From assembly GCA_038831915.1 (NCBI GenBank), contig JAWBKB010000022.1:1-23441 (forward strand): a stretch of 23,441 nt of DNA, in the 5' to 3' direction. The notes beneath the pieces were generated by a model. The model had not been told where the DNA came from and did no database searches. It saw nothing but the letters and a program-made list of their open reading frames with translations. The stretch comes from Candidatus Caldarchaeum sp. (GTDB taxonomy: Archaea; Thermoproteota; Nitrososphaeria_A; Caldarchaeales; Caldarchaeaceae). Positions 3,311 to 16,273 of the stretch are shown here, piece by piece. How positions within the stretch are numbered: position 1 is the first letter of the stretch; every line of letters starts with the position of its first letter. Made by a program: the position numbers and the translations under genes.

Positions 3311-4470
3311 TCAAAACACACAAGCTATCGATAGGCTACAGTCACGGCTCAATTGTCTCACGCATCGAGGTTGAACTGCGTAGCGGCGAATTCACCGTGG
3401 TGGTGGGGCCCAACGCCTCCGGCAAAACGACTTTCCTCAAGACTTTGGCTGGTTTGCTTAAACCAGTTGCTGGAACAGTTTTTTTAGGCGAGGATGATGT
3501 GAAGAGTTTGAGCGCTCGTTCTAGGGCCCGTCGTGTAGGGCTTGTTCTGACGGGAAGACCTGAAGTCACTGGGATGCTTGTTGAGGAAGTTGTTGCTCTA
3601 GGTCGCTATCCTTGGACAGGTCCAGTTCATATCTTAACCACGCAGGATAAGCAAGCGGTGCAGCAAGCCATGGCTAAAACCGGCATCACACATTTACATG
3701 GACGAAAAATATCCGAACTCAGCGACGGCCAGTTCCAACGCGTCATGATAGCCAGAGCATTAGCACAACAGCCCAAAATATTGATACTCGACGAGCCCAC
3801 CACACATCTAGACACCCCTTCCCGTGTTGAAATCATGATGCTGTTACGTAGGCTCGCCCACGACGAAAACATGACGGTAGTGGCTTCAACCCATGAGCTT
3901 GAGCTGGCCTTCAGGTTCGCCGACAAACTTCTTCTTATCTCTGACAACCAAGTCAAGTCCTTCGAAGACCCGGAGGAGTTGATTAACGACGAAACTTTCT
4001 ATAAAGCATTTGGTTTCAACCGCAAGCTTTCGTTCTCACCCTTAACTCTGACGGCAGAATTTCGAGATAGCTCCGCGCACGGCAAGCCCATAGTGTTTGT
4101 TATAGCCGGAGGCGGTTCAGGCGCCAAAACATACAGAAAACTGTTGAAGAAAGGTATCAAAGTCGTGACTGGTGTACTGCATGAAAACGACATCGACCAT
4201 CACATAGCCACCATGCTAGGATTAGAAGCCATATCGGAAAAGCCTTTCCAAGATATTAGCGAGGGGACGTTGGTCAAAGCGGTTGAAAAAATGCTGTCGT
4301 GCGATGCTGTCATTTACACCAGTCCGCCAATAGGCGAAAACAATAAACGCAACTTGGAACTCCTTCAAAGAGCCATACAAAGCAACAAACCCGTATACAC
4401 AGCGCATGAAATAGAACGCCACGGCCTTAACATCATAAAACACGAACTATCGATACAGTTAACAGCTTAA
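3307..4470 (+). CDS. FepC/BtuD-type ABC ATPase with a C-terminal extra domain
   Basis: Walker A GPNASGKT, signature LSDGQFQR, Walker B LILDEPT, H-loop STHE; ~130 aa extension beginning VFVIAGGGSG. Confidence 0.92.
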   Translation: MIKTHKLSIGYSHGSIVSRIEVELRSGEFTVVVGPNASGKTTFLKTLAGLLKPVAGTVFLGEDDVKSLSARSRARRVGLVLTGRPEVTGMLVEEVVALGRYPWTGPVHILTTQDKQAVQQAMAKTGITHLHGRKISELSDGQFQRVMIARALAQQPKILILDEPTTHLDTPSRVEIMMLLRRLAHDENMTVVASTHELELAFRFADKLLLISDNQVKSFEDPEELINDETFYKAFGFNRKLSFSPLTLTAEFRDSSAHGKPIVFVIAGGGSGAKTYRKLLKKGIKVVTGVLHENDIDHHIATMLGLEAISEKPFQDISEGTLVKAVEKMLSCDAVIYTSPPIGENNKRNLELLQRAIQSNKPVYTAHEIERHGLNIIKHELSIQLTA

Positions 4471-5014
4471 CCAACAAGACCCTTAATGATTTAGCTGGGC
4501 AGCTGTTTTTAACGTGAAGGTAGCTCCGGGTCTGTTTTGGCAGATAATCTACTGTGGCCTTCATTTCATCGGTGAGGTGCTCCTCGCCACTTAACAGCGT
4601 TTAACTTGTCTATGCTTAGACACCACGAGACAAGTTTCGTTATCGAGTTATTTTTCGCATTTCAATTGGAAATGCCTATTACCAATCTTTCAAGCAGATG
4701 GTCGTAGGGTAGCTAGTGCAAGAAATCCAGCAACCGTTTAACGGTCTATTTTTCACCCCATACCTTTTGAAAACCTCATGAACCCACATAATCAGAAAAG
4801 TTTCCCTGATTCTCTCACAAAATCCAATACTGTGTCACAATCTTTGTCAGCCAAGCTGTGTAAAAGGATTGAGACATCCACATAACCGGGTGGGCAGCCC
4901 TAGACTTAGAAGCTAAAAACCTTACCACAACCGTAACATCGACATCTCTTACTTGTTAAAACTACTGCCGCCGGGCCTATTTGATGAGTGGCTACCACCA
5001 ACGTTAGGTATACA
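4471..5014 (-). pseudogene. Possible decayed gene remnant of unknown identity
   Basis: 544-bp gap in a dense genome; minus-strand protein-like fragments in different frames (KRCRCYGCGKVF; HEVFKRYGVK; VKRLLDFLH*LPYDHLLERLV; EEHLTDEMKATVDYL) interrupted by stops. Confidence 0.3.
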
Positions 5015-6031
5015 TCATCCTTTGAGTTTCTTATCGTATTCGATAAGTTCTTTTTGTACGAATCTCCCGTCTTTGGCGATTGTTTCACCATCGTATAAGA
5101 CTGTAGGATTGTATATACCTGCGTCAGTGTGGGCTTTGGCTAGTCCTACCTTACCCTCGAACTTCAGGCTTTGAGATCCGAACCCAAACTCTACTCCCGC
5201 ATAAATTCTTTCATCTTCGAGAGGTACTCCAGTCAGCTTAGCTGTCGGATGGAAACCCCACGAAGCATGAGCTACGTAATACATTTTTTCATCGCCCAAG
5301 TTTTTCAACCATTTTTCAAATATTTTTGCTTCGATCCCTCCTTCAATTTTCACAATTTTACCGTTTTTTGCGACTACTTTCAAAGGATTCTTGAGAACAC
5401 CCAGCTCTGTCGGAGGCCAGACGAAAGTGTCAAACACAATAGTTCCCTCAAACGTTTCTTCAATCGGTGCCCAAGATATCTGGCCGCCAAGCGGTTTGTA
5501 GAATCCTTTTTTGTTCATAATTCCGTCGTTGTGGAAAACGGGGCGCTTAGGATCGTTTTCAAACCTTAGGTCAGTTCCGTTAACGCTTTTGATAACCACC
5601 TCTCTAGCGTTTGCAGTTAATTCTGTCAGTTTGTCGCCAAGCTTACACATTGTTGAATAATCTACTCGGCCAATTAGCCGTATCAACATGTCTGGGTTCA
5701 TACCTGTAAGCTCGAGGATTCTGGCGCCAGCTTTCATTGCCTCGTTGTACGCCGTCGTGTGCAGGATATACATTAGCGGCAGGCTTATAATCACGTCGCT
5801 AGATTTCATCGCTTCGGAAACATGTTTAGGCGGCTCCATGTCAACTTCTTTTCTTGTCTCATAAACCGTGATACAAGGCTCTGCTCCGAGAGAGTAAGCT
5901 GCAGACGCTAAAAGCTTAAGCATCTCCCAATCGATGGCGGTGTCGGCTAAAACCAAAACTTTCTCACCGGGTTTTGTTAAAGCAAGATCACGAACAGTTT
6001 TCAATGCAGCGTCGTACAATTCCATGAACAT
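5015..6031 (-). CDS. M29 (thermophilic aminopeptidase)/NicX-fold metalloenzyme
   Basis: KPGEKVLVLAD, EPP..V..AM..SDVI, GTDL.F, APIE..FEGTIVFD, GKIVKIEGG, EDER and HTD motifs; start at ATG 6031 or 6025, with TTTAATAAA on the minus strand at 6062-6070. Confidence 0.8.
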   Translation of the reverse strand: MFMELYDAALKTVRDLALTKPGEKVLVLADTAIDWEMLKLLASAAYSLGAEPCITVYETRKEVDMEPPKHVSEAMKSSDVIISLPLMYILHTTAYNEAMKAGARILELTGMNPDMLIRLIGRVDYSTMCKLGDKLTELTANAREVVIKSVNGTDLRFENDPKRPVFHNDGIMNKKGFYKPLGGQISWAPIEETFEGTIVFDTFVWPPTELGVLKNPLKVVAKNGKIVKIEGGIEAKIFEKWLKNLGDEKMYYVAHASWGFHPTAKLTGVPLEDERIYAGVEFGFGSQSLKFEGKVGLAKAHTDAGIYNPTVLYDGETIAKDGRFVQKELIEYDKKLKG

Positions 6032-6152
6032 AAAGCCTCGAGCAGTATCGTGTGTTAGTTGTTTATTAAATGTTTCAGCCATTGTGCGTGAACCCGCTCA
6101 TACTTAATCTGGCGGAATTGTTGCAAGAGGGATGAGTCATGTTTGGAGGGTG

Positions 6153-6172
6153 GCAAGCTATATAAAGCTTGC
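6153..6172. promoter_or_regulatory. Inverted repeat in the divergent intergenic region, candidate operator
   Basis: GCAAGCT-ATATAA-AGCTTGC, roughly midway between the two divergent starts. Confidence 0.35.
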
Positions 6173-6244
6173 TACACCGGTATATTTTCACGGTACAGAC
6201 AAGAAATAAATAACCCTTATACTTTTTTAAAACAGAAACAATAT

Positions 6245-6940
6245 ATGACAGGTAGAGTTGGTTTTTTGACCATCGGTCAATCACCGCGTAACGATGTTAT
6301 GAAAGACTTGATGAAGATTTTGCCGGCTGATTTAGAGGTGATTCAAGCCGGCGCGCTGGATGACTTCAACAACATACAGGAAATCTCACAGAAGCTCGGG
6401 CCAAAGGACGGTGAACTATTCTACGTCACAAGGATGAGGGATGGTTTAGAGGTGAAAGTTTCGAAAGAAAGGCTGATGCCATTGATGGCTGCGAAGGTTG
6501 ACTATTTGGATAGTCTAAACGTGGATGTCATTGTGATTCTTTGTTCAGGCGAATTTCCAAATTTCCGTTCCGATGCCTTGATCGTCTATCCTGACAAAAT
6601 CTTAAAGGGTGTGGCCTCGAGTATTTCCTATCAAGGAACCACCGCCATTCTTATTCCTTCAGAAAACCAAGTTGATTATGCTTTCGGTAAATGGTCAAAG
6701 TACTTCCGTGAGATTGTTGTCTTTCCAATTTCGCCCTATTCTGCTCAGCATGCTGACTTTGAAAATGTTGGCCGTATGATTCAAAACAATGGTATTAAAT
6801 TTGTCGTAATGGATTGTGCAGGGTATGATTTCAGTCACAAGAACATATTACACAGCGTGGCTCCCCAGGCTAAGGTCATTACCACCAGAGGAATCATCGG
6901 CCGTGTTGTCTCCGAGATGTTTAGACAAAAGCTTGCATAA
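6245..6940 (+). CDS. aroM: AroM family protein
   Basis: GFLTIGQSPRNDV, GALD, YVTRMRDG, ILCSGEFP, SPY and VMDCAGY motifs; start at ATG 6245 downstream of an AT-rich TATA-like run. The symbol denotes the family, not a proven orthologue. Confidence 0.85.
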   Translation: MTGRVGFLTIGQSPRNDVMKDLMKILPADLEVIQAGALDDFNNIQEISQKLGPKDGELFYVTRMRDGLEVKVSKERLMPLMAAKVDYLDSLNVDVIVILCSGEFPNFRSDALIVYPDKILKGVASSISYQGTTAILIPSENQVDYAFGKWSKYFREIVVFPISPYSAQHADFENVGRMIQNNGIKFVVMDCAGYDFSHKNILHSVAPQAKVITTRGIIGRVVSEMFRQKLA

Positions 6941-6944
6941 TTTT

Positions 6945-7799
6945 TCACCTTTTTCTTAGCCTTGGGTTAAGATATTCAACCAAACCGTCTCCAAGCAGGT
7001 TTAATCCAACAACAATCATTGACAACATGATGCCTGGATACACCGCCATCCACCAGGAGGTCAGTAGATATTGTTGAGCAGTGTTCAGCATCAAGCCAAG
7101 ACTTGGCACGTTGGGGTCTCCTACTCCTAAGAACCCTAACCCTGCCTCGATCAGAATAGCTGAGTTTACCTGCAAGATTATGTATGGAATTACCGCTGGT
7201 ATAGCATTAGGCAATATTTCGCCGAAGATTATACGTGAATCGGGCAATCCTATTGCTCTCGCTGCTTCCACGAACTGTCTTTCTTTGATTGATAGAAATT
7301 CGGCTCTAATTAAGCGGGCTAACCCGGGCCAGCTAACGATCCCGATGGCTATAATGATGTTTGTAAAGCTCTGGCCAAAAATGGCTACTATTACTAGTGC
7401 GAGCAGAAACTGTGGGAGAATTAGAGTCATGTCGGTGATGCGCATCAGAAAATCTTCTAGAAAACCTCTGTAGTAGCCTGCGAGAACCCCTATCAATGTT
7501 CCTATTACGATTGCTATGAGAACTGAGCTTAATCCTATCGTTAACGAGGTTCTTATTCCATAAATTACGTTTGAATATATGTCGCGGCCGAGATCATCTG
7601 TTCCGAATGGATGTCCCTCATTGGGGGGTGTGAATGGTTTCCCGACAAGAGTTTTGAGCGGAGGGAACCATGTTAACAACGGTGCAAATACCGCGATAAC
7701 AACCACGGCTGAAACGATGATGAGCCCTGCATATACTCTGGAGTTCAGCAGTATTCTAGAGCGTTTGACTTTCTTTTTCTGGTTTGTGTTAGTTGACAT
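6945..7799 (-). CDS. dppC: Dipeptide/oligopeptide ABC permease DppC/OppC
   Basis: HPFGTDDLGRDIYS, EAA loop FVEAARAIG, EAGLGFLG, WWMAVYPG, NLLGDGL. Confidence 0.93.
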   Translation of the reverse strand: MSTNTNQKKKVKRSRILLNSRVYAGLIIVSAVVVIAVFAPLLTWFPPLKTLVGKPFTPPNEGHPFGTDDLGRDIYSNVIYGIRTSLTIGLSSVLIAIVIGTLIGVLAGYYRGFLEDFLMRITDMTLILPQFLLALVIVAIFGQSFTNIIIAIGIVSWPGLARLIRAEFLSIKERQFVEAARAIGLPDSRIIFGEILPNAIPAVIPYIILQVNSAILIEAGLGFLGVGDPNVPSLGLMLNTAQQYLLTSWWMAVYPGIMLSMIVVGLNLLGDGLVEYLNPRLRKR

Positions 7800-7800
7800 T

Positions 7801-8769
7801 TTACCTCACCCTTATACGTGGGTCGATTAACCCGTATAAAATGTCTACAATCAGGTTTGCGATTATTATGATGATCGACCCGTAGATGAATATTCCAAGA
7901 ACCACCGGATAGTCACGTAGTTTTATCGAGTCGTATAGAAGGGAGCCCATTCCCGGCCATGCGAAAACTGTTTCCGTTAGTATTGCTCCCACGAGTAAAA
8001 CTCCGGTGTTAAATCCTGTGTAGGTTACCACAGGGATCAACGCGTTGCGGAGTGCGTGTACGAAGACTACTCTTCTTTCGGAGAGACCTTTGGCGCGGGC
8101 TGTTACGATGTAATCTTGAGTCAGTGATTCAAGGACGCTTGCACGAGTTATTTTCGTAGTGTATGCAATGTTAAATGTCGCTAGCGTGAGAACGGGCAGC
8201 ACCATATGACGCAGTACGTCAAGAACATAGTCGAATCCTTTATACCCAGCTCCGACGGTTACCATACCACCTAGAGGGAAAAGCCCAAGATAAACGGCAA
8301 AGACTATCAAGATTATTTGTCCAAGCCAAAAGTAAGGAATTGATATCCCGATTAATGAGAGTATTGAAAGGGTTACGTCTAGTGTTCCTCTCCGTGCAGC
8401 AGCTACCGTGCCTATTAATATACCCACTGCAGCGGATAACGCCATGGCGGACAACACGAGAAATATCGTGGCGGGAATTCGGTCAAGTATCAGTTTGGAT
8501 ACTTGCTCTGATCTCAGGTATGAGTATCCTAGGTCTCCTCGAAGGACGTTGGAAATATAAATCAGTAGCCGTTCGTGGATTGGTCTGTCAAGCCCGAGTC
8601 TTGATCTGGTTGCCTTGATAAATTCCTCATCTCCTATTTCTCCGGCAAGGATGTAGGTTGGATCGCCAGGAGCGAGATTGATTAACATAAAATTGATGAC
8701 TATGACTACAAAAATCATAGGGATGTATTGTATAAGGCGTTTGACAATGAAATTTAACGCCTGCGACAT
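7801..8769 (-). CDS. dppB: Dipeptide/oligopeptide ABC permease DppB/OppB
   Basis: APGDP, GDLGYSY, DYIVTARAKGL, HALRNALIP, ETVFAWPGMG, DPRIR; GGAGG SD upstream. Confidence 0.93.
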   Translation of the reverse strand: MSQALNFIVKRLIQYIPMIFVVIVINFMLINLAPGDPTYILAGEIGDEEFIKATRSRLGLDRPIHERLLIYISNVLRGDLGYSYLRSEQVSKLILDRIPATIFLVLSAMALSAAVGILIGTVAAARRGTLDVTLSILSLIGISIPYFWLGQIILIVFAVYLGLFPLGGMVTVGAGYKGFDYVLDVLRHMVLPVLTLATFNIAYTTKITRASVLESLTQDYIVTARAKGLSERRVVFVHALRNALIPVVTYTGFNTGVLLVGAILTETVFAWPGMGSLLYDSIKLRDYPVVLGIFIYGSIIIIIANLIVDILYGLIDPRIRVR

Positions 8770-8827
8770 TTACTTCCTCCTCAATTAATGGTTTGCATTG
8801 GTATAATAACTTTAAACGTTTCAACCT

Positions 8828-9817
8828 CTACTGTTTTTCATAGAGGTAGCACGCTACTTCCCTTCCTTCGACATTGTAGAAAGGAGGGGGCTCCTTCCTA
8901 CACTTCTCAATGGCGTATGGACATCTTGTATGGAATCTGCATCCTGGAGGCGGGTTTATCAAAGATGGTGTTTCACCGGTTATGGTTGGTCGGTCACGCG
9001 ATTTGGCGATATCGGGGTCTGGGACAGGTATAGCAGATAATAACATACTTGTGTAAGGATGGAGTGGTTTTTTGATGATGTCCTCCGTTTTCCCCTGTTC
9101 AACCACTTTGCCAGCATACATCACCAACGTGTCTTCGCATATACTTTTTATTAGCGCTATGTCATGGGAGATGACGATGTACACCATTTCTGGGAAATCC
9201 CTATGTATGTCGAGGAGCAAGTTGATAATTTGACCTCTGATGGATACGTCTAATGCCGAAACTGGTTCGTCAGCTATCAGCAGCCGCGGGTTCAACGCGA
9301 TTGCTCTCGCAATACAGACGCGCTGTCTCTGTCCTCCGCTCAGCTCATGAGGATATCTTTCCAGAAATAGCTCTGGTGGAGTTAGCCCTACCCTTTCAAG
9401 TAAGTTCGCGACTTTTTCGTTAATGGTTTTTAAATCAAGGGTGGTATGTAGTTTATATACCTGTTCAAGTATCTGTTTGATCTTTTTCCGTGGGTTGAGG
9501 GATGCCATGGGATCTTGGAAAACCATCTGAATCTGCGGCCTAAGTTTTCTCAATTCGTTCTTGTCTAAGCTGAAAATGTTCACACCATCAAAGTAGACAG
9601 TTCCGGAAGTAGGCTCTATGAGCCTTAAAATTACCCGTGCCAGCGTTGTTTTGCCTGAGCCACTCTCTCCTACTATACCCAGAGAGCTTCCCTTTTCTAC
9701 TTGGAAGCTAACGTCATCAACGGCTTTCACGTAGGATCTAACTGTGCCGAAAAAGCTGCGGCCAGCAGGGAAATATTTCTTCAAGTTAATAACGTGTAGT
9801 AAAGCGCTGTTCTTCAT
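8828..9817 (-). CDS. dppF: Oligopeptide ABC ATPase DppF/OppF
   Basis: GESGSGKT, FQDPMASLNP, LSGGQRQR, DEPVSALD, HPYT, C-terminal GCRFHTRC...C...C motif. Confidence 0.93.
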   Translation of the reverse strand: MKNSALLHVINLKKYFPAGRSFFGTVRSYVKAVDDVSFQVEKGSSLGIVGESGSGKTTLARVILRLIEPTSGTVYFDGVNIFSLDKNELRKLRPQIQMVFQDPMASLNPRKKIKQILEQVYKLHTTLDLKTINEKVANLLERVGLTPPELFLERYPHELSGGQRQRVCIARAIALNPRLLIADEPVSALDVSIRGQIINLLLDIHRDFPEMVYIVISHDIALIKSICEDTLVMYAGKVVEQGKTEDIIKKPLHPYTSMLLSAIPVPDPDIAKSRDRPTITGETPSLINPPPGCRFHTRCPYAIEKCRKEPPPFYNVEGREVACYLYEKQ

Positions 9818-10800
9818 TGTGCCTCACTCAATAGCCAGCATGCTGCAGCACGGTTTTCGCCGAAATGGATGAGCGGCGGCTCCATATTTTTACATTTGTC
9901 CCAGACATATCGGCATCGTGGATGAAAACGGCATCCCTGCGGTGGGTTGATCAAGTTAGGAATAGTTCCGTCGATCGTAGCAACGGTTGCTCTTTCACTT
10001 TTTATCGACGGAACAGCGTTGAGCAATCCCACTGTGTAAGGATGTTTTGGGTCCTTGTACAGTGAGTAAACATCGCCCACTTCAACAATTTTGCCTGCAT
10101 ACATGATCATCACACGGTCGCATATTTCTGCAACGATTCCAAGGTCGTGCGTGATTAAAATTAATGACATTTGCATATCTCTGATGAGCGATTTCAACAT
10201 CGCAAGCACTTCAGCTTGAACCGTAACATCTAACGCCGTCGTCGGCTCATCCGCTATTAATATTTCTGGATTGCATGAGATAGCTATAGCGGTCATTACT
10301 CTCTGTTTCATACCGCCGCTTAGCTGGTGCGGGTAGCGAGAGGCAACGTTCGTCGCATCCGGTATCTTCAATTTTTCCATTAACTCGATCGCCCTTTGCT
10401 TCGCCTCTTTCCATGAAACTCCGTAATGGAACACAATGCTTTCGGCTATTTGATGCCCGATCTTGAAAACGGGGTTAAGATAAGTCATCGGATCTTGGAA
10501 AATCATTCCGATACGACGCCCTCTGATTTTCCGCATGTAATCGTTGGGTATCTTGAGTAGGTCAATTTTCTCCGGGTAGAGCCAGACGTTTCCGTTTACG
10601 ATCCGTGCGTTTTTCGGAAGAAGTTTTGTTATGGTGAATGCAAGTGTGCTTTTTCCGCTTCCAGACTCACCGACTATGCCTAACACTTCTCCTTTCTTGA
10701 GCTCAAACGAAACACCGTCAACAGCCTTAACAATTCCTTCTGTTGTTTCATAATAAACAGCCAAGTTAGAAACTTCAAGAATCTTCAAAAATTTTACCAC
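9814..10800 (-). CDS. dppD: Oligopeptide ABC ATPase DppD/OppD
   Basis: GESGSGKS, LSGGMKQR, DEPTTALD, HPYT, GCRFHPRC; overlaps the dppF start. Confidence 0.93.
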   Translation of the reverse strand: MVKFLKILEVSNLAVYYETTEGIVKAVDGVSFELKKGEVLGIVGESGSGKSTLAFTITKLLPKNARIVNGNVWLYPEKIDLLKIPNDYMRKIRGRRIGMIFQDPMTYLNPVFKIGHQIAESIVFHYGVSWKEAKQRAIELMEKLKIPDATNVASRYPHQLSGGMKQRVMTAIAISCNPEILIADEPTTALDVTVQAEVLAMLKSLIRDMQMSLILITHDLGIVAEICDRVMIMYAGKIVEVGDVYSLYKDPKHPYTVGLLNAVPSIKSERATVATIDGTIPNLINPPQGCRFHPRCRYVWDKCKNMEPPLIHFGENRAAACWLLSEAQ

Positions 10801-10837
10801 CCATTAGAGCATATTGCATGCAAACCCACATCAGCTG

Positions 10838-11902
10838 TTACACCATCTTTTTTTGGATTATGTTCTCGACCCGTTTAAGTAAATCGATGTCTCTAACACC
10901 TGACCCTAAAGGAATCTTTTCACGCGGTACAATGACTATAGTTATTTTCTGCCCTTTTGATATTTCAGCAGATGCTATTGGCAGTCCTGTTTCACTGCTT
11001 AATGTGACGATTAAGTCAGGAAAAGTAGCCAACCTCTCGTTTTTGTTTTTTTCCAACGTCATATATTCATTCCAAAAAGTAAGTAGATAGCTGCCGGTGA
11101 CGCCTCTGACTTGTACGGTCCCAACATCATAGCCGCCTTTTGATTCCAGAGTTACGGATTCTACAACGCCGCTGTCAATCAGTTTGCCAGCTGTTTTCTT
11201 GACGATGTTTTCCACTATTCTTTCACCGTCTCCACGGTATTTTTGAAAAATTTTCCCTACTTCTATGGCGAGTTTCAAACCGCCCACCGCTGCATTTTCT
11301 TTGACGTAATTGGGTGAAACAGGGTTTCTCGTTACCGCTACCATTCCACCCGCTTGAACAGAAGCCTCGCGGATAATTTTGTCCACCTTATCCAGCGAGC
11401 CTTTTGCGAAAACCTCTACGTACTGCCCCGATTCCTCGCGTCCTCCGACAGCAGCCTGGATAGAAACATAATTCTTAACTTTGTGAAGGCCCATTGAGCC
11501 CATTACGCCCGTGGGATGGGCTCTTCCGTCTGCTGGAGCGTCTACAACAGGTATGTCCATGAAAGCTGATGGTATCCACCCGTTTACGGTCGACATTCCA
11601 CCATTCTCAGAAGTTATAAAGCCGGTAATATATTCGCCTGACATATCAATTAGCATTTCAGCTGACTTGAGAATGTGTTTTGCTGAGACATGTTTCTCTC
11701 GTGCTGATGGAGCACCGATAATCGAGGCCGTGGCTATGAGTCCTTCGGTCACTTCGTCAATGTCAACGATTATTACATCGCCTGATTCAACAGCCAGTTT
11801 TGCATATTTCAGCCCTAGGCTGATTTCACCCCCTCCCCCTCCTCCGAAAAACGCGCCACCCAGAACAGCAGCCTCGGCTAACGACTCATCTATTCGCAAC
11901 AT
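10838..11902 (-). CDS. DUF917 family protein
   Basis: GGAFFGGGGGG N-terminal motif, GAPS, ENGGMSTVNG, VDAPADGRAHP, WNEY and TFPDLI motifs. Confidence 0.85.
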   Translation of the reverse strand: MLRIDESLAEAAVLGGAFFGGGGGGEISLGLKYAKLAVESGDVIIVDIDEVTEGLIATASIIGAPSAREKHVSAKHILKSAEMLIDMSGEYITGFITSENGGMSTVNGWIPSAFMDIPVVDAPADGRAHPTGVMGSMGLHKVKNYVSIQAAVGGREESGQYVEVFAKGSLDKVDKIIREASVQAGGMVAVTRNPVSPNYVKENAAVGGLKLAIEVGKIFQKYRGDGERIVENIVKKTAGKLIDSGVVESVTLESKGGYDVGTVQVRGVTGSYLLTFWNEYMTLEKNKNERLATFPDLIVTLSSETGLPIASAEISKGQKITIVIVPREKIPLGSGVRDIDLLKRVENIIQKKMV

Positions 11903-12571
11903 TCACGTTCTACCGAATTCCAACTGCCTAAGAATGGATAAGGCGGCAGCTCCGGAGGCAACAACTGGCTCGATTATAGGGATGGGGAAGAACTTTTGAA
12001 CTTTCTTTACGAAACCAATTGTACTGTAACCTGTGCATGCCAAAACAACAGCATCCACGCCTTTCTCTACTAACTTTTTCAACGCCTCGATAGACGCCTT
12101 CTCTCCCTCCTGAGTCATGAGATCTGTCGTGTTTCTTACGTTAGCCGGATGTTCTTCTGCGACTAGGTTTTCTCCCAGAATCCGTTTAATAGACTGAGGA
12201 ACTTCTTCGGTCAGTTTGATTACGCCGATTTTTTCACCCATGGAGAGAGCAAGCGACGCTGCCGCAGAACCTGAACCAATCACTGGAATTTTTATTTTTT
12301 CCCTTGCCTCCGAAACAGCTGGATCTATGGCACAACTGATTATGATGGCGTCAACACGATCTTTTTGGAACTCCTCAACCATCTGTAGGATTTTTGGCTT
12401 CGCTATTTCCTCGGTTTCAGCATCGTATATTCCCTTAGGCTGGTCTTTTATGCATTTTGAGATAACCTTGAGTTCAGGGAAGACCTGCTCGATAAGTCTA
12501 CCATGCTGATGGAGTTTTTCTTCGTCATGTATCGTGATTACTCGGACGAGGCCTATGCGGTATTTTGTCAT
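11903..12571 (-). CDS. Hydantoin/Asp-Glu racemase family protein
   Basis: Two Cys motifs ISCAIDP and LACTGYS, plus IPVIG and IPIIEPV; ATG 12571 forms an ATGA overlap with the DUF1177 stop. Confidence 0.85.
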   Translation of the reverse strand: MTKYRIGLVRVITIHDEEKLHQHGRLIEQVFPELKVISKCIKDQPKGIYDAETEEIAKPKILQMVEEFQKDRVDAIIISCAIDPAVSEAREKIKIPVIGSGSAAASLALSMGEKIGVIKLTEEVPQSIKRILGENLVAEEHPANVRNTTDLMTQEGEKASIEALKKLVEKGVDAVVLACTGYSTIGFVKKVQKFFPIPIIEPVVASGAAALSILRQLEFGRT

Positions 12572-13530
12572 TTCCCGCACTCCCTTGGCTCTATGGTTTT
12601 TGCAAGTATATCACGAACATGTCCGTGCGTTTTCACAATAGTCTGAAACTCATCCTCATCATAAAACTTTACGTCGCCTTTTCCAAATCCTTTCGCAACC
12701 TCAACAACAAACCTCGTTGCCTGTTCAAGAGCAAGAATGTTGTTTGCTCCGGTAGCGGAGCCAGGGACAATCATTTCACTCGTGATCGCCACACCTACCA
12801 CGGGCGCATCGGTGAAGAGCCAAGGTTGCATCATGCTGTTCAAATGATACGCAGGAGTTGAGAAAGGTATGATATCCTGCATGGTGATCGGAACTATCAC
12901 CGGCATATGTCCTGCCACACACATGTATATATTCATTAGGTCTTGGCTCACTTTGAGTATCCATCCCTGTTTCACGGTTGGGGTGATTGCGAACCCGTTG
13001 TGTTTGACAACGTAGTTCGCCTTGGTTGCGTCGATCGATAAAACCGCATCCATTTCCGGAGAGACTTCTTTTTTGAGTAGTGTAAATATGTCGACCGGTG
13101 ATTCCATCATCGCCGCTGGTTTGTGCGGTCGCGTGGGTGCGTTAGGACATATATGTGTAGTGATTTTTACATCACCCGGTAGCACATCACCCCTCCTCTT
13201 CATCTCAGCTAACATATAAACAGTTGCCAATGCCACCACAGCGCCATCTGCGTCTGAAACGATTCCAACTTCAATTGGTCTGGCCCCAATGCCGCCAAGA
13301 CGGCCGATAACACCGAGAGTGGGCGATGTTCCATTTACCGACTTTCCGTTAACACCAGACACCAAGATCGACACGAAATCAGTCACGCCTTTAACGCCTT
13401 TCAAGGTTTCAACGTAGATAGGAAGCTTGTCGTAACCCTTGCCTGTGAAAAATTTTCGCACTTCTTCGCCTGACACCGATGGGTTGTCTAACAAATCTAG
13501 GATCTCGACAACATATCTAAAAGCGCTCAT
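12568..13530 (-). CDS. DUF1177 family protein
   Basis: PTLGVIGRLGGIGARP, VSDADGA, LPGDV, THICPNAPTRPH, MDAVLSIDATK, ITPTVKQGWIL, YHLNSMMQP, PGSATGA; start trimmed to ATG 13530. Confidence 0.85.
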   Translation of the reverse strand: MSAFRYVVEILDLLDNPSVSGEEVRKFFTGKGYDKLPIYVETLKGVKGVTDFVSILVSGVNGKSVNGTSPTLGVIGRLGGIGARPIEVGIVSDADGAVVALATVYMLAEMKRRGDVLPGDVKITTHICPNAPTRPHKPAAMMESPVDIFTLLKKEVSPEMDAVLSIDATKANYVVKHNGFAITPTVKQGWILKVSQDLMNIYMCVAGHMPVIVPITMQDIIPFSTPAYHLNSMMQPWLFTDAPVVGVAITSEMIVPGSATGANNILALEQATRFVVEVAKGFGKGDVKFYDEDEFQTIVKTHGHVRDILAKTIEPRECGK

Positions 13531-13572
13531 GGATTTCCCTTTTTTTAGATAAAGAAAAATTTTTGGTTGTTT

Positions 13573-13579
13573 TAAAAAA
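13573..13579 (-). terminator. Oligo-T terminator-like tract after the Dpp substrate-binding gene
   Basis: T7 run on the minus strand about 10 nt after the stop, typical of archaeal intrinsic terminators. Confidence 0.4.
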
Positions 13580-13588
13580 ATAGTGGGT

Positions 13589-15481
13589 TTATGTTTTTGG
13601 TTTTCTTGTACGAGATACGGCAAATGAAACCGCTGCTACAGCTACGACGACGGCCACCACTACTGCAGCAATAGCCCATTCGGGAACCACTTGTGTCACA
13701 ACCTGTGTAGGCTGCGTAACTGTCACCACTTCGGATTTGACTACAGTCGTCATAACGGTCGTTCCTCCTTGTATTATAGTCTGTATCATAGTTCGTTCAA
13801 CGGTTATAACCTCTGTTCTAACCGGAGCCTTGACCCAGTAGATTTTCTCAAGATTGAGATACCCTGTCCCCATACCGTTTTCCCATGCACCTGGGGCTAG
13901 TTCGTCGGAGAAATCAAGGTTTACAGCGGCCACGAAAGTTCGTGAACACGTCCAAACAGCTGGCTGATCCTCGACAAGGATTTTCAGAGCTTTTCGGACG
14001 AGCTCAACTTCTTTTTGACGGTCGATTTCATACTCTGCGGCGAAAATCAACTTGTTAAACTCGGGGTTGTTGTATCCCATGGCGTTCGACCATGAAGCTC
14101 TAACAATGCCTTTTTCCGTGTAGTAGCGGATGAAGAATGTTGGGCCAGGTCCATGAACAAACGGGAATATGCTCATGTCGAAATCCCAATTGCGGAATAC
14201 TCTCTCATGCCATGCTGCAGTATCTAGGGCAACGATTTCAACAACTATTCCCACTTGTGCTAAAAAGTCGCGTATCAGCTCCGCTTCTTTCAAGTAGAAT
14301 GGGTATGAAACGGAATCTATCATCAGTCTCAGCTTGAACCTTGTTCCGTCCGGCCCTCTTCTGTATCCGGCTTCGTCCAGTAGTCTTTCTGCTAGAGCAG
14401 GGTTGTATGCTGGCTGATTAACTCCAGGGTTGTATTGAGCTACCGCAGGAGCGCTTGAAACGACGGTATCGAGTGCCTCAACTCTGTTAAAGTAAACGAC
14501 TTCGGCGATTTTATGTCTGTCAATTGCAGCGGCTATGGCTTTTCTCACACGCACGTCTTTAAGCGGTGCTGGCCCCTCGGGGTGTAAATTGAACCCAACG
14601 ACGTCGAGTGAGCCTCCTGGGCTTGGGAAGAACCAGACACGTTTACCTGGAAGCCGTCCAAGACCAATCTTTTCCTGTAAACCAACAGCATCGGAAATCG
14701 TGAGACCATAAGTCCAGATAAAATCAACATCGCCCTTCTCGAATGCAAGTGTCAACGCTGGAGAAGTTCGGATTATGCGGAAAATGATTCTATCGAGGTA
14801 TGGTAACCCTTTTTTCCAGTAGTTTTCGTTTCTTTCAAGAATGATGTATTCGCCTTTCTTCCATTCTTTGAACTTGAACGGCCCTGTTCCGATAGGTTGT
14901 GTATTGTAAGGATTGTTTGCAATGTCTGTGTTTTCATAGAGGTGTTTAGGACTTATGTTGATCCCCGAACCGCCGAAATATCCAGGATAGAACGCGGGCG
15001 CCCACGTGGTGTTGAAACGGAATATGACCGTGTAGTCATCTGGTGTCTCTATGGATTTGACATAGGATTTAACCATATAGGCGACAAAGCTGTTGAAAAC
15101 TGGCGCAACTACCTCGTATGTGAACTTTACGTCGGCGGACGTGAATTTCCTACCGTCGTGCCAGGTCGCGTTTCTGACCAACTTAAACACAATCGTCATT
15201 CCACCATCACGCTCTTTGATAACCTGCCAAGATTCTGCCAACTCAGGCTGCCACTCCAATGTTTCTGGATCAATGCTTACCAACGAGTTCCCAATTTGCC
15301 TAACTATTTGATAAAAGGCCCATGTTGGTGGTCCGCTCAACGCTAGATGCGGCGGCTCAGAGCTTATTCCGACAACTAGAGTTCCTCCGTGTCTAGGCTG
15401 AGCTTGGATGGATGGAGCCGCTGAAAACGCTAACAATAAAGCCAAAAGCAGAGCTAAAAGATATTTTCTATTTCCTGTCAT
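13589..15481 (-). CDS. dppA: Family 5 ABC substrate-binding protein DppA/OppA with signal peptide, C-terminal Thr/Val linker and membrane anchor
   Basis: PELAESW, WHDG..FTSADVKFT, PIGTGPFKF, NENYW, DVRVRKAIAAAIDR; C-terminal TVTQPT linker, hydrophobic helix and basic tail. Confidence 0.93.
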   Translation of the reverse strand: MTGNRKYLLALLLALLLAFSAAPSIQAQPRHGGTLVVGISSEPPHLALSGPPTWAFYQIVRQIGNSLVSIDPETLEWQPELAESWQVIKERDGGMTIVFKLVRNATWHDGRKFTSADVKFTYEVVAPVFNSFVAYMVKSYVKSIETPDDYTVIFRFNTTWAPAFYPGYFGGSGINISPKHLYENTDIANNPYNTQPIGTGPFKFKEWKKGEYIILERNENYWKKGLPYLDRIIFRIIRTSPALTLAFEKGDVDFIWTYGLTISDAVGLQEKIGLGRLPGKRVWFFPSPGGSLDVVGFNLHPEGPAPLKDVRVRKAIAAAIDRHKIAEVVYFNRVEALDTVVSSAPAVAQYNPGVNQPAYNPALAERLLDEAGYRRGPDGTRFKLRLMIDSVSYPFYLKEAELIRDFLAQVGIVVEIVALDTAAWHERVFRNWDFDMSIFPFVHGPGPTFFIRYYTEKGIVRASWSNAMGYNNPEFNKLIFAAEYEIDRQKEVELVRKALKILVEDQPAVWTCSRTFVAAVNLDFSDELAPGAWENGMGTGYLNLEKIYWVKAPVRTEVITVERTMIQTIIQGGTTVMTTVVKSEVVTVTQPTQVVTQVVPEWAIAAVVVAVVVAVAAVSFAVSRTRKPKT

Positions 15482-15502
15482 ATCTATAGTTCTGTATGTC
15501 TA

Positions 15503-15517
15503 GTTAATAACTTTTCG
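15503..15517 (-). promoter_or_regulatory. BRE/TATA promoter of the dppA-DUF1177-racemase-DUF917-dppDFBC operon
   Basis: Minus strand GCGAAAAG-TTATTAA, TATA about 22-28 nt upstream of the ATG, consistent with a leaderless transcript. Confidence 0.6.
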
Positions 15518-15541
15518 CTAATTAACTTTTTTGCAGTTTAA

Positions 15542-16079
15542 GGCACTGTCAACTTTTACTTAAGGTTTTTGGAAAGGGCCTATGGGCTGGGTTGTTTTGA
15601 TGGGTTTGTGGACGTCTTCGATTATCTCGTAGGGCGTATGTCCAGAAGGTTTATGCTGCTATGTTGTTCGTTGCTGGTTTGAGCCTTAGAGACGTTATTA
15701 CAGGCGCGTCTAGGGAGAGTGTTAGGTGTTGGGCCCATAGGATGAGAAAACTCTTCACACCATATAGTCTGCTGTAGACGTGGATGCAGGGGGAGATAAC
15801 AGCTGTATATGCCTTTAGGGGTAGGTCTATCCTAAACGCCTAACTGTTCTGGAAAAATGCGAGGGGAAAATGGGATTTGAAGAGGCTTCTATGAAACATT
15901 TGGGGATGGGAATAGGGTTGAGAGGTGGTTTAGGGGGCTTAAAGACAGGACCAAGAGATTCCACAACAACATAACTCAAAGACGGTCAGGAGTTATTGAG
16001 GAGATAGCCATAGCCCTCACACACAACACATTACTCAACACCCAAAGAGAAGGGGGCGTATTACCTGGCTGACAGTACC
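15542..16079 (+). mobile_element. Degenerate, internally deleted IS6-family insertion sequence (transposase pseudogene)
   Basis: Terminal inverted repeats GGCACTGTCAAC / (rc) GGTACTGTCAGC, similar to IS6-family GGCACTGT ends. Fragments in different frames: KVYAAMLFVAGLSLRDV..ASRESVRCWAHR, SAVDVD/GEITAVYAFRGRSILNA*, ETFGDGNRVERWFRGLKDRTKRFHNNI. Confidence 0.85.
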
Positions 16080-16234
16080 TGTGAATTTTTAATGGCGGGC
16101 AAGCCTTTGCTGATGCAAGATCCTAAGTTTGCTCACGCTTTGTAACCTCCCTGTTAAGGCTTTCAAAATTCTTCCAGTATACTGTTGTGACGAGCCTGAC
16201 CACCTCCAGAGCTGTCGTATCATGTGAGAGTGAT

Positions 16235-16273
16235 GTAGGCGCGGCCGTGGGTGAAAACCATTCTTGCGCCTAC
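16235..16273 (+). other. GC-rich hairpin capped by a GAAA tetraloop
   Basis: GTAGGCGC (16235-16242) pairs with GCGCCTAC (16266-16273); inner GGT-GAAA-ACC. Confidence 0.4.

Follow-up and report, generated by a model that had tools for sequence, protein, structure and literature searches.

A conserved gene module joining DUF1177, AroM, DUF917, a two-cysteine racemase and a NicX/M29-like protein to a peptide-type importer in Candidatus Caldarchaeum

Ten intact genes at positions 5015-15481 of a contig from the hot-spring archaeon Candidatus Caldarchaeum sp. (GCA_038831915.1, contig JAWBKB010000022.1, 1-23,441; the whole stretch of 23,441 nucleotides analysed is called the window) form a real conserved module, not a chance neighbourhood, and the gene set is found again in many archaea and bacteria. 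We give an even chance to the reading that the module imports a small, chiral compound that derives from peptides, resists peptidases and is likely cyclic, and converts it to amino acids by stereo-inversion and hydrolysis. The view in the initial annotation that DUF1177, DUF917 and AroM have no assigned pathway agrees with our literature search, which found no functional characterisation in print.

Organisation of the locus

The ORF list and Pfam matches placed eight genes in one minus-strand operon, in the order SBP, DUF1177, two-cysteine racemase, DUF917, DppD, DppF, DppB and DppC (Table 1). The three enzyme genes lie inside the transporter operon, between the binding protein and the remaining transporter genes, as had been described. 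The intergenic gaps in this order are 58, -4, 0, 37, -4, 58 and 1 nt. Read from the sequence, DUF1177 and the racemase share an ATGA (12571-12568), the racemase and DUF917 abut as TGA-ATG (11905-11900), DppD and DppF share a second ATGA overlap (9817-9814), and DppB and DppC are joined as TAA-a-ATG. The initial annotation had quoted two of these junctions (ATGA at 12568-12571, abutting at 11902/11903), both exactly, and its operon of eight co-directional genes was confirmed; its description of the starts as overlapping or abutting stands for these junctions, but three gene starts were corrected. The most likely start of DUF1177 is ATG 13530, from which its homologues align, so that an AT-rich gap of 58 nt, and not an overlap, separates it from SBP. 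The racemase and AroM starts were moved to ATG 12571 and ATG 6245.

Table 1. Features of the locus, with window positions and supporting matches
Feature	Position	Strand	Evidence or remark
SBP_bac_5 substrate-binding protein (SBP; DppA/OppA type)	13589-15481	-	PF00496 E 8e-83
AT-rich 58-nt gap, SBP stop to DUF1177 start	13531-13588	-	read from sequence
DUF1177	ORF 12568-13623; corrected 12568-13530 (320 aa from ATG 13530)	-	PF06675 E 9e-118
Asp/Glu/hydantoin racemase	ORF 11903-12580; corrected 11903-12571	-	PF01177 E 2e-26, 93.5 bits vs cut-off 31
DUF917 (= S-Me-THD_N + _C)	10838-11902	-	PF06032 + PF20906
ABC ATPase, DppD type, oligo_HPY C-terminal region	9814-10800	-	PF00005 + PF08352
ABC ATPase, DppF type, oligo_HPY C-terminal region	8828-9817	-	PF00005 + PF08352
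ABC permease, DppB type	7801-8769	-	BPD_transp_1 PF00528 + PF19300
ABC permease, DppC type	6945-7799	-	BPD_transp_1 PF00528
AroM	ORF 6143-6940; corrected 6245-6940 (231 aa)	+	PF07302 E 7e-57, 192.8 bits vs cut-off 23.8
Divergent intergenic region, NicX-like gene / AroM	6083-6244	.	read from sequence
NicX/M29-like (clan MQ) 355-aa ORF	5015-6082	-	alternative start 6031; NicX 7cn3 match

AroM is convergent with DppC and, as first noted, forms an adjacent divergent pair with the M29-fold (NicX-like) gene; the pair abuts the operon. For the NicX-like gene, 6031 (MFMELY) is a possible start, which would match that of its paralogue on contig C12 of the same genome; the divergent region would then measure 213 nt. 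A conserved non-coding motif was sought in this region and none was found. In an RNA-library run, all eight matching contigs (at least 99% alike) lay inside 7659-15373; one, covering 13446-13652, bridges the SBP/DUF1177 gap and another the DppB/DppC junction. These contigs weakly support expression of the operon, as they may contain DNA and tell neither strand nor level.

Recurrence and co-inheritance of the gene set

Contig C12 carries a second ten-gene copy in identical order (53-81% amino acid identity). Beside it lie genes for two enzymes of amino-acid fermentation, a 2-oxoacid:ferredoxin oxidoreductase and an acyl-CoA synthetase of the ADP-forming type. A genome from another family of the same taxonomic order (G033, locus L105) has all ten genes in this arrangement too, and locus L030 has the same components. 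An alignment-seeded co-occurrence scan found 537 relatives and kept 80 loci; 79 of these, from many phyla, had a DUF1177 ORF. AroM was present in 50 of the 79, DUF917 in 30, the racemase in 26 and the NicX/M29-like gene in 23; at least one of these four partners occurred in 61 loci and all four in 13, and 18 had none within the stretch covered. Where at least 9 kb was available on both sides (n = 36), the counts were 25, 11, 14 and 12, respectively, with any partner in 30. Together with the co-inheritance described below, this neighbourhood check showed that the co-occurrence stated in the initial annotation is real and strong.

DUF1177 and AroM alone make up the most conserved core. AroM lies within 200 bp of DUF1177 in 35 of their 50 shared loci, on the same strand in 34 of these, and a DUF1177+AroM fusion protein exists (P0121, 561 aa). 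Moreover, among the present genome (G000) and 40 relatives, DUF1177 occurred in eight, AroM in the same eight plus one 81%-complete genome, and module-type DUF917 was confined to G000, four further genomes that carry DUF1177 and that same 81%-complete genome.

Accessory dipeptidase or amidohydrolase genes were found in the 79 loci (M20 in 8, S51 PepE in 5, M24 in 5, CN-hydrolase in 3), together with OPT (20) and SBP-ABC (20) transporters, NCS1 permeases (6), PucR-type regulators (12), nitroreductase-like genes (2) and S66 LD-carboxypeptidases (2). An enterobacterial and plasmid cassette reads IclR-OPT-DUF1177-AroM-PepE-racemase, and a haloarchaeal plasmid locus holds an extra AstE/AspA-family deacylase. 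The transporters beside the 13 full modules were OPT in 10 and family-5 SBP ABC in 3, with NCS1 in none.

Predicted activities of the encoded proteins

The racemase residues C80, D83, P84, C179, T180 and G181 were invariant in 29 sequences. Its PDB matches were 2eq5 (E 4e-78), 3qvj (E 1e-7) and OpaE (9qbx, E 1.4e-6), with glutamate racemases weaker (E 5e-4 to 1e-3) and behind the latter two. By sequence, it falls in the hydantoin/allantoin-racemase-like branch of the cofactor-independent two-cysteine racemases/epimerases. Its characterised relatives, allantoin/hydantoin racemase 3qvj and OpaE, act on alpha-carbons inside cyclic amides; OpaE is reported to epimerise a residue within a tricyclic peptide derivative (PMC12661438). 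Across 34 AroM sequences, C100 was invariant and C191 conserved to at least 90%, and an hhalign comparison with the racemase profile (97% probability, E 8e-11) placed both pairs of cysteines opposite each other. This alignment through both catalytic cysteines, which is new here, predicts AroM to be a second two-cysteine racemase-superfamily enzyme, and the two racemase folds expected from the first reading of the DNA are thus borne out.

Of 7999 candidates that were scored because they shared most words with the DUF1177 protein, at least 6865 proved to be relatives (E ≤ 1e-10); a functional name was sought and none occurred among the 120 matches listed. Its AF2 model (pLDDT 83.1, pTM 0.87) gave a VIA Z of 17.0 to TET/M42 5ds0 and Z of 16-17 to M28, M20 and M17 chains, and Foldseek returned BotP and PfA-M17 at E 3e-9. 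DUF1177 thus models as a Zn-exopeptidase fold, an assignment new here, with putative metal ligands placed from motif order alone, and we propose that it hydrolyses the product in its opened or linear form.

The NicX-like ORF had no match among the Pfam models used. It resembles solved NicX (7cn3, E 6e-13, residues 90-292), and 316 of its relatives carry a precomputed PF26233 ('NicX') match, some also PF02073 (M29). The protein is 75% identical to its C12 paralogue, and E289, D290, E291, H318 and D320 were invariant in 26 sequences, constituting M29-type EDE and HxD motifs, whose retention is also a new observation; the HxD motif is common to NicX, and both motifs to M29 aminopeptidases of the AmpS/AmpT type. 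Canonical M29 members of related loci contain AE..G and GTxH, whereas window-type proteins contain AH..G and GxE, as if the Glu and His of a pair had been swapped. NicX itself is a 2,5-dihydroxypyridine 5,6-dioxygenase, whereas the gene here sits in a peptide operon; its relatives occur in loci from Thermococci, Bathyarchaeia and Sedimentibacter, lineages of anaerobes, and this speaks against a dioxygenase that depends on O2. We propose a metallo-hydrolase, and the earlier expectation of two metalloenzyme folds, DUF1177 and this protein, was upheld.

DUF917 matched, over their full length, the models for thiohydantoin desulfurase (NF058529, 310 bits, cut-off 440) and S-methyl thiohydantoin desulfurase (NF058532, 265 bits, cut-off 450), and PDB 2o3i at E 3e-8. 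Six of seven module-linked DUF917 proteins elsewhere scored 273-306 bits against NF058529 (seven of eight with the window's own), compared with 91-105 bits for HyuA-paired ones. These scores mark a distinct module-type subfamily, recognised here, that is closest to the thiohydantoin desulfurase model but under its cut-off. Judging from their family names, characterised DUF917 relatives remove ring sulfur, and we know of none that opens a ring; a hydrolytic step on a ring is proposed for the present protein.

The SBP has an N-terminal signal sequence, a Thr/Val-rich linker and a C-terminal membrane anchor in the archaeal style. Its closest solved chain is the oligopeptide-binding AppA of B. subtilis (1xoc, E 6.5e-41), every match to NCBIfam models was far under its cut-off, and the SBPs in three other modules share 80-84% identity with it.

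Possible substrates and related systems

We infer the following scheme of substrate class, step order and enzyme roles. The Dpp/Opp-family importer would take up a small chiral compound of peptide origin whose breakdown ordinary peptidases cannot complete. Most likely it is cyclic, either of the diketopiperazine type or a hydantoin/imide-type ring with amino-acid side chains. In the cytoplasm, the hydantoin-racemase-like protein and AroM, as cofactor-independent Cys-Cys epimerases, would invert alpha-carbons and so funnel all stereoisomers into one. The DUF917 enzyme would carry out the hydrolytic step on the ring, the DUF1177 and NicX/M29-like enzymes of metallo-exopeptidase fold would cut the opened product to free amino acids, and these would enter fermentation. 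In favour of this scheme are the operon anatomy, the recurrence and co-inheritance of the set, the peptide-type transporters, the conserved cysteines and motifs, the fermentation genes beside the C12 copy, the accessory dipeptidase or amidohydrolase genes and the enrichment around cyclodipeptide-oxidase genes cited below. The lack of such an oxidase in the module, the rarity of nitroreductase-like genes in related loci, the sulfur-removing chemistry of DUF917 relatives and the 18 loci with no partner family count against it.

Somewhat unlikely, yet the strongest competitor, is salvage of linear small peptides with D-residues or abnormal linkages, whether murein-derived or 'aged' by D-Asp/isoAsp. 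Here DUF1177 and the NicX-like protein would be peptidases selective for stereochemistry or linkage. AroM and the racemase would turn freed D-amino acids, or a dipeptide's D-residue, into the L form, and DUF917 would act on a side branch. AroM without a DUF917, racemase or NicX-like gene in 17 of the 79 loci suggests that ring opening is not universal and that linear peptides may be what the core acts on. The frequent absence of DUF917 beside the core pair, the prevalence of OPT and SBP-ABC peptide transporters, the PepE-containing cassette, the two S66 loci, the haloarchaeal deacylase and the aminopeptidase-type fold predicted for DUF1177 all favour this reading, and accessory PepE and LD-carboxypeptidase fit linear peptides with Asp or D-residues equally well. 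However, the characterised relatives of the racemase are ring racemases, ahead of glutamate racemases; DUF917, near the thiohydantoin desulfurase model, lies inside the operon here and occurs in 30 of the 79 loci; and we know of no two-cysteine racemase that acts on internal residues of linear peptides.

Non-canonical utilisation of simple 5-substituted hydantoins or N-carbamoyl amino acids, with the racemase as hydantoin racemase, DUF917 as hydantoinase and DUF1177 and/or the NicX-like protein as carbamoylase, is improbable. The branch to which the racemase is assigned, the relation of DUF917 to enzymes acting on a thiohydantoin ring, the fold that the DUF1177 model has in common with M20 ureide amidohydrolases (allantoate amidohydrolase, Z 15.1) and the M20, CN-hydrolase, NCS1 and PucR-type genes of related loci speak for it, but full modules have OPT or Dpp transporters instead of NCS1, and a second racemase-fold enzyme and two exopeptidase-fold enzymes are left unexplained. 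This reading overlaps the favoured one, from which it differs solely in substrate size.

We regard as quite improbable that the genes share no pathway, being a generic dipeptide importer with unrelated insertions, or that they serve to build or tailor a metabolite derived from peptides. The SBP does belong to a general peptide class, and a biosynthetic role is left open in PMC11055893. Against these options, the same gene set stays together across domains with three transporter families, the families are co-inherited, synthetase, ligase and exporter are all absent from the module (Pfam), and the architecture is that of an importer with a binding protein. That the module degrades ergothioneine or some other sulfur-containing derivative of histidine, a substrate class offered initially, with DUF917 as (S-methyl)thiohydantoin desulfurase, is very improbable despite the full-length matches to NF058529 and NF058532, since both scores are under the equivalog cut-offs, a search of the genome (95.6% complete) revealed no urocanase-family PF01175 or aromatic-lyase-family PF00221 gene, and DUF1177, AroM, peptidases and peptide transporters are, to our knowledge, foreign to that pathway.

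Several known systems resemble the module in part. Ergothioneine catabolism uses thiohydantoin and S-methyl thiohydantoin desulfurases, to which the DUF917 here is a full-length relative, plus a lyase and a hydratase; the neighbours differ, and the latter two are the genes that the search above did not find. Murein-peptide recycling sets (B. subtilis ykfABCD; E. coli LdcA, MpaA, YcjG) likewise combine a peptide importer, an epimerase and peptidases for D-containing peptides, and S66 LD-carboxypeptidase adjoins DUF1177-AroM in the two loci mentioned, but the epimerases here are of two-cysteine racemase fold rather than enolase-superfamily, and the module has no NlpC/P60 or M14 enzyme (Pfam). 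Hyu operons comprise an NCS1 permease, hydantoin racemase, dihydropyrimidinase-type hydantoinase and an M20 or CN-hydrolase carbamoylase. The racemase Pfam family is common to both, as is the scheme, in which import is followed by racemisation and hydrolysis of the ring, and amide hydrolysis then yields an amino acid; in contrast, the ten genes include no amidohydrolase-type hydantoinase, carbamoylase or NCS1, the transporter is peptide-type, and AroM and the DUF1177 and NicX-like hydrolase families are additional. The P. horikoshii 'hypothetical hydantoin racemase' 2eq5, a structural-genomics entry, matches the racemase over its full length with both cysteine motifs identical, and is likewise without assigned function.

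Finally, synthase-less cyclodipeptide-oxidase loci are enriched in PF01177, PF06032, PF07302, peptide transporters and peptidases (Andreas & Giessen, Nat Commun 2024, PMC11055893); the accessible part of that paper describes such clusters bioinformatically in anaerobic bacteria and Thermococcus and leaves their function open. A cyclodipeptide oxidase/nitroreductase gene is absent from the ten-gene module (Pfam) and present in only 2 of the 79 related loci. DUF1177, the anchor and most conserved member here, and the NicX-like protein are not named in the accessible part of PMC11055893, and none of the papers listed by a literature search for PF06675 contained it. What the module and those clusters have in common is PF01177, DUF917, AroM, ABC di/oligopeptide and OPT transporters, and peptidases.

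Organization and second copy of the module

The ORF list and Pfam place ten genes, all intact, between 5015 and 15481 of the window, which is contig C22 of a 1.59-Mb genome (34 contigs, 95.58% complete); the closest named record (locus L010) is ~97% identical to the window over 20.8 kb. The minus strand carries, in order, the genes for the family-5 binding protein (SBP), DUF1177, an Asp/Glu/hydantoin racemase, DUF917, two oligo_HPY ATPases and two permeases. On the opposite strand, AroM is convergent with the last permease gene, and a 355-aa NicX-like gene is divergent from AroM. The initial annotation had described this arrangement correctly overall, and the junctions read from the sequence at 11905-11900 (TGA-ATG) and 12571-12568 (ATGA) are exactly as it gave them, but three gene starts had to be moved: DUF1177 to the ATG at 13530, with 58 AT-rich nt between it and the end of the SBP gene, the racemase to the ATG at 12571, and AroM to the ATG at 6245. 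Additional junctions are an ATGA at 9817-9814 and a TAA-a-ATG between DppB and DppC. No convincing small ORF was found in 15482-16263 or 4471-5014, no RNA family was detected in the window with Rfam at gathering thresholds, and phylogenetic footprinting gave no conserved non-coding motif in the AroM/NicX-like or upstream-SBP intergenic regions. An apparent conserved block in the AroM/NicX-like footprint proved to encode the N terminus of the NicX-like protein in the other loci.

The SBP, the two BPD_transp_1 permeases and the two ATPases form a Dpp/Opp-type (PepT family) importer, and all five proteins exceed their Pfam cut-offs. The nearest solved relative of the SBP is the peptide-binding protein AppA (E 6.5e-41), and its scores against NCBIfam equivalogs all fall far under the cut-offs (for example, 134 vs. 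650 bits for Opp4A).

A second complete ten-gene copy, on another contig of the same genome (C12), has the identical order and orientation pattern. Amino acid identity between the two copies is 80% for the SBP, 79-81% for the permeases, 75% for the NicX-like protein, 68-70% for the ATPases, 65% for DUF1177, 57% for DUF917, 55% for AroM and 53% for the racemase. The C12 copy adjoins genes for a 2-oxoacid:ferredoxin oxidoreductase and an ADP-forming acyl-CoA synthetase, and an ORF without a Pfam match also lies near it (table).

Among the neighbours of the window copy, the S9 peptidase gene was considered as a further member; it is probably outside the module, since such a gene lies near DUF1177 in just 2 of 79 DUF1177 loci compared across many phyla. 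The HEPN and nucleotidyltransferase genes look like a HEPN/MNT toxin-antitoxin-type pair. The EutA-like and hydantoinase A genes constitute a separate, second pairing of a racemase fold with a cyclic-amide hydrolase, ~5.5 kb from the module. The ATPase of the FecCD-type system has a C-terminal extension of ~130-150 aa past the ABC domain, without a Pfam match.

Positions of features in the window and in the loci compared
Feature	Locus	Position (nt)	Strand	Remark
ATPase of FecCD-type ABC system	window	3307-4470		neighbour of the module
Family-5 SBP	window	13589-15481	-	signal sequence, Thr/Val-rich linker, C-terminal membrane anchor
S9 prolyl-oligopeptidase/acylaminoacyl-peptidase-like gene	window	16264-18132		divergent from SBP gene; gap of ~780-850 nt without convincing ORF
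Ogt methyltransferase gene	window	18202-18732		flanks HEPN/nucleotidyltransferase pair
HEPN gene	window	18725-19204	-	overlaps nucleotidyltransferase gene
Nucleotidyltransferase gene	window	19156-19959	-	overlaps HEPN gene
MoaA gene	window	20045-21052		flanks HEPN/nucleotidyltransferase pair
Arylmalonate-decarboxylase/EutA-like protein	window	21049-21750	-	Asp/Glu racemase superfamily
Hydantoinase A/oxoprolinase gene	window	21813-23441	+	runs off contig end; divergent from EutA-like gene
ADP-forming acyl-CoA synthetase	L003	283-2403		adjoins second copy
2-oxoacid:ferredoxin oxidoreductase	L003	2476-5576		adjoins second copy
ORF of 449 aa	L003	5613-6962		no Pfam match
Second module copy	L003 (G000:C12)	7022-17282		53-81% aa identity to window copy
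Six-gene cassette	L108 (NZ_CP057460.1)	4556-9963		conjugative Klebsiella plasmid, IS-flanked
Six-gene cassette	L111 (NZ_CP006570.1)	4558-9969		Sodalis praecaptivus pHS1
HyuA-paired-type DUF917	L106	5673-8343 and 15447-18200		related genome
HyuA-paired-type DUF917	L107	7629-8681		related genome
unk283 family	L011	10969-11817
unk283 family	L068	2146-2994
unk283 family	L017	16327-17832

Predicted activities of the five enzymes

The racemase belongs to PF01177 (93.5 bits vs. a cut-off of 31). Its residues C80 and C179 are invariant among 29 sequences and align to the Cys motifs of the solved structures 2eq5 and 3qvj. The best match is 2eq5, an uncharacterised protein of P. horikoshii (E 4e-78); the nearest characterised relatives are 3qvj, a putative hydantoin/allantoin racemase (E 1e-7), and OpaE (E 1.4e-6), with glutamate racemases ranking behind them (E 5e-4 to 1e-3). 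Hydantoin-racemase function is thus putative for the module enzyme, its sole links being the 3qvj and 2eq5 matches. OpaE is described as epimerising a residue within a tricyclic peptide derivative and as belonging to the allantoin-hydantoin racemase subfamily (PMC12661438).

AroM is a PF07302 member (192.8 bits vs. 23.8) that scores 165.1 bits against the E. coli AroM equivalog NF007788, under the cut-off of 198. Among 34 sequences, C100 is invariant and C191 is present in at least 90%, and the alignment of AroM with the racemase profile (97% probability) brings both cysteine pairs into register. This cysteine conservation and the profile alignment indicated that AroM is a second two-cysteine enzyme of the racemase superfamily. 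A complex prediction for DUF1177 (A1) with AroM (A2) scored 0.01 vs. a mark of 0.32, which gives no answer and counts neither for nor against an interaction.

Both DUF917 domains (PF06032 and PF20906, now named S-Me-THD-like in Pfam) are present, with 69.9 and 96.3 bits vs. a cut-off of 27. Against thiohydantoin desulfurase (NF058529) and S-methyl thiohydantoin desulfurase (NF058532) the protein scores 310.4 and 264.7 bits, under the equivalog cut-offs of 440 and 450, respectively. Two DUF917 subfamilies occur in the loci compared. The HyuA-paired type (n = 3, two proteins from L106 and one from L107) matches the Pfam N-domain strongly and reaches just 91-105 bits on NF058529; each of the L106 copies is immediately next to a gene for a HyuA-like hydantoinase A. 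The module type matches the N-domain weakly and reaches 273-310 bits on NF058529 in seven of the eight proteins tested, the exception among module-linked proteins being that of L035 (88 bits). As no DUF917 protein tested reaches the cut-off of 440 bits, the module enzyme ranks as the closest relative of the desulfurases and not as one of them. In addition, neither the ergothionase-type lyase family PF00221 nor the urocanase family PF01175 was found in the genome, at 95.58% completeness.

DUF1177 is a PF06675 member (392.5 bits vs. 25) whose fold was resolved by an AlphaFold2 model only. All sequence routes found nothing: phmmer and profile searches of the PDB gave no relative of known fold, hhalign gave no relation to the NicX-like profile or to small profiles of the M20, M24, S51, S66, CN-hydrolase, DUF917, racemase, AroM and SBP neighbours, and ESM Atlas features, with PF06675 excluded, returned nothing. 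The model, built from 29 sequences (pLDDT 83.1, pTM 0.87), matches the alpha/beta fold of the Zn-dependent exopeptidases (clans MH/MF: M42, M28, M20 and M17). It aligns to the TET/M42 aminopeptidase 5ds0 with Z 17.0 (rmsd 3.4 over 232 residues), to M28, M20 and M17 enzymes with Z 16-17, and to allantoate amidohydrolase with Z 15.1; 122 chains match at Z of at least 8 with no one family standing out, and Foldseek gave E 3e-9 for BotP and PfA-M17. The conserved residues D51, D93/D95, H126/C128, D167 and H229 sit where strands end and follow the same order as the metal ligands of the clan; by motif order, they mark a candidate metal site.

The NicX-like protein has no match in the Pfam set searched, including Peptidase M29 (PF02073) at E up to 10. 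PF26233 ('NicX') is precomputed on the window protein (P0124) and on all 120 relatives listed, some of which also carry PF02073. The window protein matches the solved NicX 7cn3 (E 6e-13), with the HMMER alignment stopping at residue 292. The family takes two forms in related loci, a canonical M29-like form with the motifs PSGE, AE.GIGTN, EDEK, GTxH and HxD, and the window form with GGQISW, AH.S.G, EDER, GxEFG and HTD. E289-D290-E291 and H318-x-D320 are invariant across both, and one Glu/His pair appears to be swapped between two motifs. At the position aligned to 7cn3, the EDE motif resembles M29 and not NicX. On these motifs, the protein is probably a hydrolase with a retained metal site.

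Recurrence, mobility and origin

The ten-gene order is repeated in L105, a locus from another family of the same order (genome G033), and the locus L030 carries the identical set of components. An alignment-seeded scan with one genome per species yielded 537 DUF1177 relatives, from which 80 loci were kept; in all of these except L083, leaving 79, a DUF1177 ORF was recovered by an ORF/HMM pass. Near DUF1177, AroM was present in 50 of the 79 loci, DUF917 in 30, the racemase in 26, the NicX/M29-like enzyme in 23 and a family-5 SBP with permease in 20; the corresponding counts for the 36 loci flanked on each side by 9 kb or more were 25, 11, 14, 12 and 14. One or more of the four enzyme families occurred in 61/79 loci (30/36 of those with long flanks), all four in 13/79 (6/36) and none in 18/79 (6/36). 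In 35 of the 50 AroM-bearing loci, no more than 200 bp separate AroM from DUF1177, in 34 of these on the same strand, and a 561-aa protein fuses DUF1177 to a following AroM. Among this genome and 40 relatives, AroM occurs in the same eight genomes as DUF1177 and in one further, 81%-complete genome; the eight are kin in three genera and therefore amount to about three independent observations. In rare longer proteins, DUF1177 is joined with an ABC ATPase (614 aa) or with a PucR-type HTH domain (733 aa); this pair (P0122 and P0123) may be real fusions or gene-call artefacts.

The transporter beside the 13 full modules is OPT in ten and a family-5 SBP ABC system in three, with NCS1 in none; across all 79 loci, OPT was counted 20 times and NCS1 six times. 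Regulators near DUF1177 are PucR (12 loci) and IclR (11). Peptidase-type neighbours comprise M20 (8), M24 (5), PepE-type S51 (5) and S66 (2), and CN-hydrolase (3) and nitroreductase (2) genes were also recorded. In bacterial modules, a family of ~283 aa without a Pfam match (unk283) lies between DUF1177 and AroM in 8/79 loci. One Sedimentibacter locus seems to have it as a fusion on the upstream side of AroM, and it is absent from the present genome. It was rejected as a diverged AroM, as a single sequence showed no relation to the AroM profile, and the strong match between the two profiles is due to long ORFs in the AroM alignment whose N-terminal part is unk283-like.

DUF1177 comprises at least 6865 sequence clusters. 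It is present in archaea among Thermoproteota, Bathyarchaeia, Thermococci and haloarchaea and in bacteria among Bacillota, Synergistota, Enterobacterales and Actinomycetota, and it also occurs on plasmids. Two plasmids share a six-gene cassette, IclR-OPT-DUF1177-AroM-PepE-racemase, and the IS elements that flank it on the conjugative Klebsiella plasmid indicated that, in this short form, the module is mobile. On a haloarchaeal plasmid, the order is ABC-DUF917-DUF1177-AroM-aminopeptidase, with genes for a racemase and an AstE/AspA-family enzyme next in line. Haloferax volcanii and Sulfolobus acidocaldarius, which served as control genomes, both match DUF1177 and DUF917, with an AroM match in H. 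volcanii as well; no E. coli genome matched an enterobacterial DUF1177-AroM stretch. The module is more than a chance neighbourhood: it is a real, deeply conserved catabolic system with two diverged copies in this genome.

The G+C content of the window copy is 45.2% vs. a genome mean of 49.0% (sd 1.5%, 10-kb windows), with 1.5% of windows lower; its flanks have 51-57% and the C12 copy 47.9%. DUF1177 is also patchy among relatives (7 of 40 besides this genome). The DUF1177 FastTree (47 selected rows out of about 215), consulted on a foreign origin of the window copy, places it next to a clade that unites the C12 copy with two Caldarchaeum proteins. The SH-like support of 91 for this position is under the 95% mark, which leaves transfer and an old duplication within the lineage equally likely. 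A mosaic origin of the two copies was rejected, since the identities to three other modules are specific to each family and similar for all, from 80-84% for the SBP down to 52-57% for AroM.

In a hot-spring metagenome RNA-library run (X13), all eight contigs that could be placed on the stretch (at least 99% alike) fall within 7659-15373, one spanning the SBP/DUF1177 gap and another the DppB/DppC junction; the uncovered parts, 4400-7658 and 15374-18200 (including the AroM, NicX-like and S9 genes), are uninformative. As the contigs show neither strand nor level and the library may hold DNA, they lend weak support to expression of the module.

Proposed function and comparison with known systems

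The OPT and Dpp transporters, the peptidase neighbours, the amino-acid enzymes beside the C12 copy and the relation of the SBP to AppA together point to a small peptide-like substrate with amino acids as end products. The initial interpretation, an importer with enzymes degrading one substrate, is upheld in outline. The anatomy, conservation, residues and folds are observed, whereas the substrate class and the order of steps are inferred. In the reading with the best support, the Dpp-type system would import the compound, the two Cys-Cys enzymes (racemase and AroM) would invert alpha-carbons, DUF917 would perform a hydrolytic step on the ring, and the two exopeptidase-fold enzymes (DUF1177 and the NicX-like protein) would cleave the opened product and release amino acids.

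2,5-Diketopiperazines and related rings form from peptides and epimerise spontaneously. We tentatively propose, as a possibility with the odds against it, that the module provides a genetically defined route, missing so far, by which peptides damaged by heat or age are recycled, namely cyclic dipeptides (2,5-diketopiperazines) and related five-membered imide or hydantoin rings. On this proposal, the two Cys-Cys epimerases would reset two stereocentres, the DUF917 subfamily would be the long-sought ring hydrolase, DUF1177 and the NicX-like enzyme would act as finishing dipeptidases, and the two diverged copies would cover different side-chain or stereo classes. The main rival of the best-supported reading dispenses with the ring and has a DUF1177 and AroM core handling linear D- or iso-linked peptides; in its favour, 17/79 loci contain AroM with the other three enzyme families absent, and PepE and LD-carboxypeptidase genes occur as neighbours. 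A sulfur-containing histidine derivative, one of the substrates offered initially, is disfavoured by the sub-cut-off desulfurase scores of DUF917 and by PF00221 and PF01175 not being found in the genome.

No module-type member of DUF1177, AroM, the module-type DUF917 subfamily or the NicX-like hydrolases has been characterised. A substrate assignment would annotate thousands of genes at once and would explain a trait kept and exchanged by peptide-fermenting archaea and by gut and soil bacteria. If the cyclic-peptide proposal is true, the module would be a source of enzymes for hydrolysing a ring, a reaction to which the literature search attached no named enzyme; that search also found no functional study of diketopiperazine catabolism, and for diketopiperazine hydrolases it gave a paper that, by its title, concerns caprolactam degradation. 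The finding is directly testable, because tractable carriers exist (H. volcanii, S. acidocaldarius and, with the cassette, Sodalis praecaptivus pHS1).

The same literature search found no functional study of DUF1177, DUF917 or AroM with hydantoin racemase, none of thiohydantoin desulfurase among titles outside subscription, and one paper on part of the gene set; a paper retrieved for DUF1177 was unrelated, judging by title and abstract. The hyu operon comprises a dihydropyrimidinase-type hydantoinase, a carbamoylase and an NCS1 permease, none of which is among the ten module genes. Clusters of cyclodipeptide oxidase (CDO) genes without a synthase share part of the gene set. Their surroundings are enriched in PF01177, DUF917 and AroM, as well as in peptide transporters and peptidases, with the function left open (Andreas and Giessen, 2024; PMC11055893). 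These clusters include a CDO gene (nitroreductase-like A subunit and B subunit), whereas none of the 21 ORFs scanned in the window, each 159 aa or longer, matched the nitroreductase family. DUF1177, a member of the module, goes unmentioned in the passages of that account consulted.
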